DNA of 64,000 nucleotides from Candidatus Aenigmatarchaeota archaeon (GTDB taxonomy: Archaea; Aenigmatarchaeota; Aenigmatarchaeia; QMZP01; QMZT01). The DNA lies in the NCBI GenBank assembly GCA_041489155.1, contig JBGPQP010000005.1:2509-66508 (forward strand). The letters are read 5' to 3'. This document shows, one piece after another, positions 46,780 to 49,701 of this stretch (position 1 is its first letter; each line of letters begins with the position of its first letter). The notes beneath the pieces are model-generated. The model saw only the letters and a program-made list of their open reading frames with translations, was not told the DNA's origin and searched no databases. A program made the translations under genes and the position numbers.

Positions 46780-48678
46780 CTATCCTATAAATATGGGCCT
46801 CTTGGTAAGAAGCCTGGGAAGCGGCAGCGCCTTGAAGGGCTTGCCTTCCGTCTGCTTCTTTATCATGTCTACAAACGCTTTCTGCGTATGTTTCTCGACC
46901 TTCCCTGTTTCCCTTAGTCTCACAGCAAGTTTGTTTTCAGTCAGTTCCCTTTCCCCGATAACGACGGCGAAGGGTACCCATTCAATCTCCGAGTCGCGTA
47001 TTTTCTTCTGGACGCTTTCTTTTCTGTCGTCAACGTCGACCCGTATCCCTTCCTTCGCGATTTCCTCGGCTATTGCTTCCGTCTGCTTCAGGAACTTGTC
47101 TGACACGGGGATGAACCTCGCCTGCGTTGGGCAGAGCCACAAAGGAAGGATTGGGTTCTTGCCTTTGGCCGATTCCATGTGGGCCTTTTCAAGCAAAGCA
47201 TACATCACCCTTTCTATCGCGCCTGAAGGTGAGAGGTGAAGGATGATCGGATATTTCTTCGTGTTGTCGCTGTCCATGTACATTATGCCGTAGCGTTTAG
47301 CGTTCTCGACGTCTATCTGGTCCGTCGTCAGCGCTGCTGCTTTGTCAAGCGCATCGACGAAGTTCAGGTCGTACTTGAAAATGAAGTAGAAGAACTGCTT
47401 GCTCCACATTTCGAGCAGGACCGGCTTGCCTATTTTCTTGACAACAGTCTTCAGGAAATCTCTGTTATCATCGTAGAAATCTTTCACCACCCTGAGCGCG
47501 CCTTCCAAGTTTTCGTTCAGCGGCACGCCGACGCCATTCAGGATGTCCTTCGCCAGGTCCAGGCGCGTCAGCATCTCCCCCTTCGCCTGCTCAATATCCC
47601 TGCACATCGCATGGCAATCAGGCATGGTGAACGCGCGAAGCCTGCGAAGTCCAGCGAGCTCGCCTCGCTGCTCCACGCGGAAAGAATAGCGCGTAAGCTC
47701 GTACATTCTCATCGGAAGATTGCGGTAGGAAATATTCGCGTCCTTCGCCATCAGGAATTGTCCGAAACACGCTGAAAAGCGCAGGAATACGCGCTTGTTG
47801 GGCGTCTCGATTGTATACTGCCTCGCAGGGAAGCGGTTCAGATAATCCTTGAGCGCAGGATGCTCGTAATCATACATTATCGGTGTCTCGACTTCCATCC
47901 CGCCGTAACCGATTACCTTCCCGGTGACATATTCTTCCAGAAGCGATTTTATCAGCCTTCCCTTGGGAAGGAAGCGCAGGTTGCCCGGGTCGCTGCCGCT
48001 TTCGTAATCCACCAGTTCGAGCTTCCTCATCAAGCGCACGTGCGGAGGCTCTTTGTCAGCGACTCTCGATTTCGCCATCTCGTAACGGGCGAATTTCTCC
48101 AAGTTATTGTGTTTCGAAAAATCGAAGCCTTTCACATTCCCTTCTTCTATGCTGAGCTTGTGCAGCTTCCCTTCTATGTCAAGCACATACCAATCCGAAG
48201 CGAGCGTCTTCTCCTTCTCGAGCGCCTTTGAAACCTCGGCCTTCGCTTCCACCACGTCGTCTGCGACTATCTCCCTTGAAAGCTCGGAAAGCGGGTGGCC
48301 CTTTACGGCGATGGTGAATCTTTTGTAATAGCCGAAAGGCGCGCGGTGAACGCTGTACTTCATTCCCTTGAGCTGGGTTTCAACTCCTTTCAGAACAGTC
48401 AGGGCGGCGGACGGCGATGAAGGCGTTTTGCTCAGATGAACATAAGGGTAAACGACGATGTTATTTGCTTTCACTTCTTTCGCTACTTTGTCTATCTCCT
48501 CCGAAGTCTTGTCTATTATGGTCTTTTCCTTGCCTTCGTCATTTTTCTCCACCGCGGAAAAAACCACCAGCACGTCCTTTACGCTGCTTACTTTCTTTTC
48601 GATTTCCTCCGCGTTTTTAATCGCTTTTTCTTTCGGTTCCCATTCTATGAAATCCGAATGCAACAACAGGATTTTCAT
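46780..48678 (-). CDS. thrS: Threonine--tRNA ligase, archaeal type with N-terminal editing domain
   Basis: 'YPYVHLS', 'APFGYYK', 'KGHPLSELSR', 'LRFSACFG', 'RLRAFTMPDCH', 'HLSPSGAIER'. Confidence 0.96.
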   Translation of the reverse strand: MKILLLHSDFIEWEPKEKAIKNAEEIEKKVSSVKDVLVVFSAVEKNDEGKEKTIIDKTSEEIDKVAKEVKANNIVVYPYVHLSKTPSSPSAALTVLKGVETQLKGMKYSVHRAPFGYYKRFTIAVKGHPLSELSREIVADDVVEAKAEVSKALEKEKTLASDWYVLDIEGKLHKLSIEEGNVKGFDFSKHNNLEKFARYEMAKSRVADKEPPHVRLMRKLELVDYESGSDPGNLRFLPKGRLIKSLLEEYVTGKVIGYGGMEVETPIMYDYEHPALKDYLNRFPARQYTIETPNKRVFLRFSACFGQFLMAKDANISYRNLPMRMYELTRYSFRVEQRGELAGLRRLRAFTMPDCHAMCRDIEQAKGEMLTRLDLAKDILNGVGVPLNENLEGALRVVKDFYDDNRDFLKTVVKKIGKPVLLEMWSKQFFYFIFKYDLNFVDALDKAAALTTDQIDVENAKRYGIMYMDSDNTKKYPIILHLSPSGAIERVMYALLEKAHMESAKGKNPILPLWLCPTQARFIPVSDKFLKQTEAIAEEIAKEGIRVDVDDRKESVQKKIRDSEIEWVPFAVVIGERELTENKLAVRLRETGKVEKHTQKAFVDMIKKQTEGKPFKALPLPRLLTKRPIFIG

Positions 48679-48725
48679 CCGCCACCACCTTTACCTTTAT
48701 TTTTTTGTTTTAGCCGTTAATTAAA

Positions 48726-48770
48726 CTCCCGGCTGGCCGAGAACCGAAAGAATCAGTCCGGCCGCAGACC
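48726..48770 (-). promoter_or_regulatory. GC-rich stem-loop region in the thrS leader
   Basis: Minus strand GGCCG-GACUGA-UUCUU-UCGGUU-CU-CGGCC hairpin between the leader ORF and thrS (paired by eye). Confidence 0.6.
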
Positions 48771-48775
48771 AAGAA

Positions 48776-48832
48776 CTAACACGTCGTAGTGGTTGTCGTA
48801 GTTGTTTTAGTCGTGGTCTTGCCGGAGTTCAT
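48776..48832 (-). CDS. Putative thrS leader peptide MNSGKTTTKTTTTTTTTC
   Basis: ATG AAC TCC GGC AAG ACC ACG ACT AAA ACA ACT ACG ACA ACC ACT ACG ACG TGT TAG; 11 of 18 codons are Thr; ends 97 nt upstream of thrS on the same strand. Confidence 0.85.
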   Translation of the reverse strand: MNSGKTTTKTTTTTTTTC

Positions 48833-48853
48833 GAAAATAATTTGGTCGTCAGA

Positions 48854-48868
48854 TTTTAAAAACCTTTC
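48854..48868 (-). promoter_or_regulatory. BRE-TATA promoter for leader-thrS
   Basis: Minus strand GAAAGG-TTTTTAAAA ending 21 nt before the leader ATG. Confidence 0.6.
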
Positions 48869-49701
48869 AGAAACGAGTAAACACATTCCGGCAGTCTTTC
48901 GCTGTAGCCGCCCTCGAGAATCGCGAAGCGTGGCTTGTTGAGATCGGCTATCATCTTTGAGATTTTCGAATACGTGTCGACCTCGAGCTTCAGCCCCGCC
49001 AGCGGATCGCCTTCGAATGTGTCGAAACCTGCTGACACCGCTATCATATCCGGCTTGAACTTTTTTATTATCTCGAGCGCGACCTCGAGCTTCTGGAGGT
49101 ACAGCCTTTCGTCCGTTCCGCTGTCGAGCGGGAAGTTGTGGCAGTTCGCTTCAGAATGCTTGCCCGTTCCGGGGTAGAAATTGCCGTACTGATGCAGGGA
49201 AACGTAAATCACGTTTTTCCTGCCAAGGAAAATGTCCTGCGTGCCGTTGCCGTGATGCACGTCGATGTCGAGGATTGCAACCTTTGCTTCCCTTCGCAGC
49301 GCCTTCACAACAGCGATGGCGATGTTGTTGAAATAGCAGAAGCCTTCGAACTTCGCTCTGCCTGCATGATGGCCGGGTGGCCGCATTAGAGAGAAGGCTT
49401 TGTCTTCCTCGAGGGCGATGAACATCGCCCTTACCGCCGCGCCCGCGGATAGCCTTGCATGGTTGTATATGCTTGGCAGCGCAGGCGTTTCGGGGTTAAC
49501 GAAATTCCCCCGTTTTATGGTGTCTATCAGTTTTGGTGTATGGACGAGGAGCAGATCCTGTCTCGTGCAGGGTTCTGGCTTTACGAATTCGAAGTTCCCG
49601 GTTTTTCCCAGAAGCTCGTACGTCCTTCGTACCCGTTCGCTCGATTCGGGATGGCCTTGCATGTCGTAATTCAGGCATTCAGGCGAAAAAACAACCTTCA
49701 T
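48856..49701 (-). CDS. Histone deacetylase family protein
   Basis: 'HPES', 'RPPGHHA', 'GFCYFNN', 'DIDVHHGNGTQ', 'SAGFD', 'LEGGY'. Confidence 0.93.
   Translation of the reverse strand: MKVVFSPECLNYDMQGHPESSERVRRTYELLGKTGNFEFVKPEPCTRQDLLLVHTPKLIDTIKRGNFVNPETPALPSIYNHARLSAGAAVRAMFIALEEDKAFSLMRPPGHHAGRAKFEGFCYFNNIAIAVVKALRREAKVAILDIDVHHGNGTQDIFLGRKNVIYVSLHQYGNFYPGTGKHSEANCHNFPLDSGTDERLYLQKLEVALEIIKKFKPDMIAVSAGFDTFEGDPLAGLKLEVDTYSKISKMIADLNKPRFAILEGGYSERLPECVYSFLKGF

Follow-up and report, generated by a model that had tools for sequence, protein, structure and literature searches.

The threonyl-tRNA synthetase gene (thrS) of a Candidatus Aenigmatarchaeota archaeon is preceded by a gap holding a short ORF, more than half of whose codons specify Thr, the amino acid cognate to the synthetase. 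The question raised by this locus is whether the ORF (here called uORF) belongs to a leader through which a translating ribosome adjusts thrS expression to the supply of charged tRNA-Thr and, if so, what the output of such a leader may be in an archaeal cell.

Locus and host genome

The gap lies on the minus strand between a gene of the histone deacetylase (HDAC) family and thrS. It is part of the window, that is, the whole 64,000-nucleotide stretch of DNA that was analyzed. The source assembly consists of 39 contigs (1.13 Mb, about 90% complete), and its relatives go by the title of Candidatus Aenigmatarchaeota MAGs in public records, which places them in DPANN. A search of sequencing runs found the locus in 15 DNA runs from sediment, wetland, and soil metagenomes and in no RNA run. 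ARAGORN called no tRNA-Thr in the assembly or the window, a result that is uninformative because just 11 tRNAs were called in the assembly. The features of the region are listed in Table 1.

Table 1 Features of the thrS upstream region and the flanking genes in window coordinates
Feature	Position	Strand	Basis or remark
Histone deacetylase-family gene, upstream neighbor	49701-48856	-	PF00850
Predicted promoter 1: BRE-like GAAAGG and TATA box TTTTTAAAA	48854..48868	-	Sequence, PWM, homologous leaders
uORF MNSGKTTTKTTTTTTTTC, predicted leaderless; 18 codons and TAG, 11 Thr codons	48776..48832	-	ATG 48832-48830, TAG 48778-48776; sequence, uniqueness, conservation
Segment A, uORF codons 2-4 (AACTCCGGC); 5' strand of P1, alternative partner segment C	48821..48829	-	
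Thr codon tract: 3 ACN, AAA, 8 ACN	48782..48817	-	Sequence
P2 5' strand AGACCA, 5' part of Thr tract	48819-48814	-	Folds
Post-stop segment	48766..48775	-	Holds P2 3' strand TGGTCT (48771-48766); folds
Hairpin P3	48735..48765	-	De novo prediction; 95% of cells paired in CM alignment
Segment C GCGGCCGGA in P3	48765-48757	-	
U-rich loop/tract CTGATTCTTTCGGTTCT in P3, after C	48756-48740	-	
Segment C' CGGCC in P3	48739-48735	-	
Segment A' AGCCGGGAGTT, 3' strand of P1	48724..48734	-	Fold predictions, CM alignment
AT-rich palindromic box TTTAATTAA, candidate second promoter (TATA box) of thrS	48717..48725	-	38 nt before thrS ATG
Shine-Dalgarno-like (SD-like) GGTGGTGG of thrS	48682..48689	-	Sequence; genome-wide SD-like peak at -12 to -9
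thrS, archaeal-type threonyl-tRNA synthetase, 632 aa	46780..48678	-	PF08915 4.4e-49, PF03129 1.2e-19, PF00587 2.5e-17

A Thr codon tract unique in the genome

The uORF is situated 97 nt upstream of thrS. A sequence-only reading of this DNA had described it as an ORF at 48832-48776 of the minus strand with 11 Thr in 18 residues and the four Thr codons mixed, preceded by a TATA element that ends 21 nt before its ATG. On re-reading, the ORF was found as described, and the element is TTTTTAAAA at 48862-48854. The Thr codons form one run of 3 and one of 8 and include all four ACN codons; the genome-wide share of Thr codons is 5.3%.

A six-frame scan of the 1.13-Mb genome for ATG-initiated ORFs of 6 to 45 codons, with at least six identical residues in eight, returned 85 short ORFs (sORFs). 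The only Thr-rich ones are the thrS uORF and its own in-frame upstream extension. In a screen of intergenic sORFs, the thrS uORF was the sole case with seven identical residues in seven, followed by 5/7 cases for Leu and Lys, and no other leader of the cognate type was found in this genome. The five next-best homo-amino-acid sORFs precede genes for SecY, an EF-G-family protein, and a GH10-like protein and two genes without a Pfam match. The Thr tract is real, and chance is excluded in practice as its origin.

Reading frame and codon constraint

A tract of low complexity whose length varies among relatives could be taken for a chance or slippage repeat without function. ACN tracts (at least five ACN in seven triplets) were sought in any frame, with no ORF required, in 111 distinct thrS upstream regions of Aenigmatarchaeota MAGs and metagenome contigs. 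A sense-strand tract was present in 29 of them. All 29 tracts are preceded by an in-frame ATG with no stop in between, and all 29 are followed within a few codons by TAG, which is the rarest stop codon in the host genome (181 of 827, 22%). The uORFs range from 9 to 22 codons across the homologues with the frame kept, so that every indel has been in frame.

The codons themselves fall into two classes of constraint. The third position of the Thr codons has an entropy of 1.92 bits; different codons are used in 73 of the 113 columns in which Thr is aligned with Thr. The corresponding entropies of codons 2, 3, and 4 are 0.85, 0.00, and 0.31 bits, respectively, with a synonymous difference in just 9 of 48 comparisons. 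This contrast indicates a constraint on coding for Thr in the Thr block and on the nucleotide sequence itself at the start of the frame. The peptides vary in length and sequence, the cognate amino acid being their only conserved coding feature. The sequence-only reading had argued for selection on Thr rather than a slippage repeat and had named conservation with synonymous variation in related DPANN genomes as the check. The synonymous variation of the Thr codons, the in-frame length changes, and the occurrence in three families all agree with that argument, as does the ATG-to-TAG frame around each of the 29 tracts. A functionless repeat is also at odds with the uniqueness of the tract in the genome and with the preservation of the start and stop codons (ATG and TAG) and of the promoter spacing, and we regard its probability as negligible.

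Distribution among relatives

A Thr-rich uORF precedes thrS in 15 of the 23 genomes of the host's family, covering 9 of its 10 genera; seven genomes are without it, and one more is cut by a contig end. One of the 15 uORFs (G017) is degenerate, with two Thr. Two further families of the same order contain carriers, namely family f5 (G060, G053, G035, and weakly G050, whose uORF has three Thr) and family f6 (G047 and G046). The order comprises 91 genomes, in which 81 thrS upstream loci were examined. An sORF with at least five Thr in seven codons is found at 18 of these 81 loci, including those of G060, G053, and G035 in f5 and G047 in f6. The uORF is also present at 14 of the 39 metagenome thrS loci whose start was located, with new variants among them.

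The uORF remains with thrS despite differing upstream neighbors. It is also kept with both of the two ThrRS kinds that occur within one family. The second kind is a single open frame of about 575 aa that is about 60% identical to the ThrRS of the window in the editing domain and just 27 to 30% identical in the catalytic part; it is found in G002, G003, G011, G015, G016, G019, and others (loci L037, L040, L045, L047, and L048). In three genomes (G012, G021, and G014), the uORF and the hairpins are deleted, and about 50 nt before thrS is retained. The loss of the uORF in these genomes, with the AT-rich box kept, indicates that the leader is dispensable.

A wider search used a strict pattern of six ACN triplets followed by TAG within 3 to 12 nt, which was matched in 51 of the 371 genomes of the class. 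Outside the order, 20 matching sites were inspected; each is part of a long Thr-rich coding region, and none of them adjoins thrS.

Several other arrangements were observed at thrS loci. In L130, from a record titled Candidatus Micrarchaeota, MDPSVVIVATGGTTTTTC closed by TAG extends from -156 to -99 before a thrS that is just 52% identical over the editing domain; a TATA-like hexamer before the candidate uORF ATG was not found in L130. This locus may be a more distant instance of the uORF. In L049 (G016), the 300 nt before thrS contain, in place of a uORF, a repeat (GCTACCA...ATTACAAGGCGA-like) of some 25 nt in three copies. Many genomes in families f3 and f5 have a divergent tRNA-Gln(CUG) gene just upstream of thrS (L030, L050, L064, L074, L082, L087, and L090), and other loci have a tRNA-like stretch with an apparent insertion that was not called by ARAGORN.

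A predicted leaderless promoter and a thrS-proximal box

TATA-like motifs in the host genome peak at -30 to -28 from the start codons (110 motifs versus 6 to 49 in other bins, 565 genes), which indicates that most first genes are leaderless in this organism. A PWM was built from 99 leaderless promoters of the host genome. Promoter 1, which overlaps the stop codon of the HDAC-family gene, has a score of 12.9. This is the best score in the gap, compared with a training median of 9.6, and is reached by 0.01% of background positions. The start predicted by the PWM is 48832, the first base of the uORF ATG. Of 29 homologous leaders, 27 have a TATA-like hexamer that begins 27 to 31 nt before the uORF ATG. 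The spacing at the window's uORF, previously proposed to be nearly leaderless, thus equals the geometry of the host's leaderless genes. The uORF has no SD, and thrS has the SD-like GGTGGTGG at the usual distance.

In 26 of 30 leaders, a second TATA-like element (the AT-rich box TTTAATTAA in the window) falls between -48 and -38 relative to the thrS ATG. This spacing of the box is constant even where insertions part it from segment A', and the box is kept in relatives lacking the uORF. In the host, SD-bearing genes with long upstream gaps show an enrichment of TATA-like motifs at -51 to -39. The retention of the box without the uORF suggests that thrS may have a basal promoter of its own downstream of the uORF, with the TTTAATTAA box as its TATA element. 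The PWM score of the TTTAATTAA region is well below that of promoter 1. With such a basal promoter, the leader would add inducible transcripts and not be the sole source of thrS mRNA.

The last 45 nt or so before the thrS ATG (48682-48725 of the window) are conserved in nucleotide sequence between genera, also in the absence of the uORF. The parts of this stretch are the SD, the palindromic TTAATTAA, and a run rich in A that contains AAAATAAAG. This A-rich run is also a weak TATA-like PWM site, whose implied start is the thrS ATG.

The constant position of the AT-rich box, its retention where the uORF is deleted, and the TATA-like motifs at -51 to -39 of SD-bearing host genes would also suit an arrangement in which thrS is transcribed from the proximal promoter only. 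The uORF would then belong to a separate small transcription unit terminating short of thrS, be it a small RNA or a micro-peptide gene; the U-rich tract after the uORF could be adduced for this, and the link of the unit to thrS would be trans-acting or historical. We consider this arrangement improbable. Wherever it occurs, the element immediately precedes thrS on the same strand, across changes of neighbor and of ThrRS type, and peptides of 9 to 22 aa with varied sequence share nothing but the cognate amino acid as a conserved coding feature. In addition, the host genome has no run of T4 or longer between the uORF and thrS, and promoter 1 scores far above any downstream site.

RNA structure of the leader

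Conserved structure was predicted by RNAalifold on MAFFT alignments of 9 and of 20 leaders. Two helices were obtained de novo, namely P1, in which segment A pairs with A' about 100 nt downstream, and P3, in which C pairs with C'. Single-sequence folds give a further helix, P2, between the first Thr codons and the stretch after the stop. A CM-guided alignment was made from 33 matches, of which 26 are distinct; 89.9% of its cells are paired, double changes occur in 12 of 19 pairs, and none of 500 shuffles paired as well. This alignment is fitted to the structure, and the higher double-change count rests on divergent rows. Within the main family, a double change is seen in just 1 of 17 de novo pairs. 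The alternative pairing between A and C is 91% paired, and its partners have changed together in divergent lineages (11 bp in L061, 9 bp in L068, and also L058 and L067). The pairing options are A with C or A' and C with C', with modest covariation and permissive shuffle controls.

The fold of the whole leader is not better than that of shuffled sequences (z -1.49). When the nascent RNA was modeled as cut just after segment C, a hairpin closed by A:C was predicted in 30 of 30 leaders, a weakly discriminating outcome in that 380 of 500 shuffled leaders also form a 5'-closing hairpin. In each of 25 leaders, the hairpin energy is below the mean of the shuffles (median z about -1.2). The 16 nt after segment C have a mean U content of about 40%. 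Most relatives have a U-rich tail at this place, and runs of U4 to U6 follow C in L132, L145, L040, L045, and L065; the tract of the window has U3 runs only. A simple terminator scan showed no enrichment (17 found versus 12.7 ± 3.7 expected). Runs of T5 or longer are enriched 0 to 40 nt past the stop codons in the host genome, which makes termination at oligo-T plausible in this organism. To our knowledge, a dependence of intrinsic termination by archaeal RNA polymerase on a hairpin is not established. The hairpin and the U-rich tract after the uORF are a weak candidate for a terminator.

The effect of a stalled ribosome was simulated for 17 leaders. The unpaired probability of the thrS SD shifted in no consistent direction, and the SD region is mostly unpaired in all modeled states. 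Masking of the thrS SD by the Thr tract, which the first fold had suggested, was dropped as the main model because no consistent effect was seen over the 17 leaders.

Proposed mechanism

Here, we propose a mechanism for the thrS leader based on the sequence comparison and the folding models. The gap is probably a cis-regulatory leader of thrS that acts as a leaderless, ribosome-mediated sensor of Thr-tRNA, a reading for which the comparative support is good. Transcription from promoter 1 would start the RNA at the AUG of the uORF. When charged tRNA-Thr is scarce, the first ribosome would stall in the block of Thr codons and keep segment A and the Thr codons outside the RNA structure. When Thr-tRNA is plentiful, the ribosome would reach the UAG and depart, and the leader would fold. 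In this scheme, we infer the translation of the uORF, the stalling, the co-transcription with thrS, the termination, and the direction of regulation.

As to the output of the sensor, our preference for premature termination is tentative. Free segment A would pair with C just past the stop codon and close a long hairpin directly before the U-rich tract. A ribosome stalled in the uORF would block this A:C hairpin, and transcription would continue into thrS. Control would then run in the direction expected for a synthetase, since the terminator would arise only with no ribosome in the uORF.

The same stalling sensor might instead have a post-transcriptional output. In the ribosome-free leader, a three-way junction closed by P1 would hinder the initiation of thrS translation or leave the RNA open to decay; stalling in the uORF would either undo this junction or shield the RNA at its 5' end. 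No other helices of the leader are as well supported as P1 and P3, and the 3' strand of P1 ends 21 to 30 nt before the thrS ATG in L003, L131, L047, L048, and L151. The closest leaderless precedent, the polycysteine sORFs of mycobacteria, is described as unmasking an RBS (10.1101/834739). On the other hand, the simulation with a stalled ribosome changed the pairing of the SD inconsistently over the 17 leaders, and the SD is mostly unpaired in every modeled state. Between the 3' strand of P1 and the thrS ATG, the spacing ranges over 21 to 63 nt, which makes precise occlusion an unlikely fit. A post-transcriptional output thus appears unlikely, and premature termination at the A:C hairpin is retained as the preferred output.

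An anticodon-like hairpin in a sister family

In the sister family f6, all 14 thrS leaders (L017, L018, L020, L021, L022, L059, L062, L065, L067, L073, L080, L084, L086, and L088) have a 6-bp stem with a 7-nt loop directly before the SD, in the 60 nt before thrS. Loop positions 3 to 6 are invariably UGUA in the 14 leaders, which corresponds to the Thr anticodon UGU followed by A, as in the anticodon arm of tRNA-Thr. A second motif 10 nt upstream is UGUAA or GGUAA, with a Thr anticodon in both forms. Two of these loci (L065 and L067) have a Thr-rich leaderless uORF as well, about 220 nt upstream. The hairpin is a candidate for a ThrRS-binding operator like that of Escherichia coli thrS, and its location before thrS suggests that RNA-level control of this gene exists in the order.

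The presence of this hairpin in the sister family, the structured nature of the uORF-containing leaders, and the complementarity of ACN triplets to Thr anticodons would be consistent with an untranslated RNA element in the window as well. Such an element would bind tRNA-Thr in a T-box-like manner or ThrRS by operator mimicry, and its reading frame would be fortuitous. However, an incidental frame does not fit the in-frame ATG and the TAG closure seen in 29 of 29 tracts, nor a TATA box that is placed for an RNA starting at the ATG. A search of Rfam with the locus gave nothing near a gathering score. No T-box match was obtained at E values up to 10 on either strand of positions 48500 to 49000, and the best value for Thr_leader (RF00506), 14.5 bits with an E value of 4.9, is below the gathering score of 55 and is no match in sequence or structure. 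Folds of the window's leader contain no 7-nt loop with a Thr anticodon NGU followed by A-A. We therefore consider an untranslated element very unlikely in the window and return to the stalling ribosome as the sensor.

Implications

In its fullest form, the proposal is that the thrS leader is the first archaeal leader-peptide attenuator, in which the position of the pioneer ribosome would set the read-through by RNA polymerase of a weak U-rich terminator, and that the order evolved two thrS sensors. We find the considerations for and against this full form evenly balanced. If it is true, attenuation of the classical kind, mediated by a ribosome, can operate with the transcription machinery of Archaea, and one order has two sensors for one synthetase gene, namely the uORF and, in the sister family, the mimic of the tRNA-Thr anticodon arm. 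Genome-reduced and probably host-dependent DPANN cells would then tune an essential synthetase without a protein regulator, in answer to a fluctuating amino acid supply. With a conserved sensor built from cognate codons, the long-standing issue of whether coupled transcription and translation in Archaea support bacterial-style attenuation would become directly testable, and the leader construct is small (about 155 nt) and portable.

Comparison with known systems

Leader-peptide attenuators are known from amino acid operons of bacteria, including thrL of the E. coli thr operon (Rfam RF00506), trp, and his, and from the synthetase operon pheM-pheST. The thrS leader shares with them a transcript-initial short ORF packed with cognate codons, the overlap of this ORF with RNA segments that are predicted to pair in alternative ways, and a predicted hairpin followed by a U-rich tract. 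It differs in the archaeal host, the leaderless uORF without an SD, the weakness of the hairpin and U tract, and the controlled gene, which is a synthetase and not a biosynthetic operon.

As to thrS itself, the operator of the E. coli gene mimics the anticodon arm of tRNA-Thr and is bound by ThrRS, and the thrS genes of Gram-positive bacteria have T-box leaders. The gene and, under the proposed mechanism, the physiological signal are the same as in the present case, whereas the leader in the window has neither an anticodon-like hairpin nor a T-box match. The sequence-only reading had limited bacterial thrS to these two types of control, which is too narrow, since a leader peptide has been proposed for thrS of Streptomyces lividans TK24 (PMC8079986). 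That report proposes leaderless leader peptides for four synthetase genes (thrL-thrS, alaL-alaS, trpL2-trpS, and leuL2-leuS). Both thrL and the archaeal uORF are leaderless sORFs directly before thrS that are proposed as Thr-dependent attenuators, and both have an unclear termination signal, described for S. lividans as a hairpin without a U-rich stretch (PMC8079986). The bacterial peptide has two Thr in 18 residues and no homopolymeric tract, and it is supported by transcriptome data (PMC8079986), whereas the support for the archaeal uORF is comparative.

A run of one codon type is found in the leaderless polycysteine sORFs of mycobacteria (the "Cys ribulon"), which are described as sensing Cys by ribosome stalling (10.1101/834739). 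The leaderless sORF and the run of one codon type are common to both systems, as would be a supply sensor based on stalling. The mycobacterial one is bacterial, is described as acting by unmasking an RBS, and controls metabolic operons (10.1101/834739), whereas in the present leaders no consistent effect on the SD was seen in the modeling and the gene concerned encodes a synthetase. In full-text searches of the literature, no archaeal leader-peptide attenuator was found, in line with the earlier statement that such reports are nearly absent for Archaea. Within the scope of these searches, the thrS leader is the first candidate for a ribosome-mediated sensor of Thr-tRNA in Archaea.
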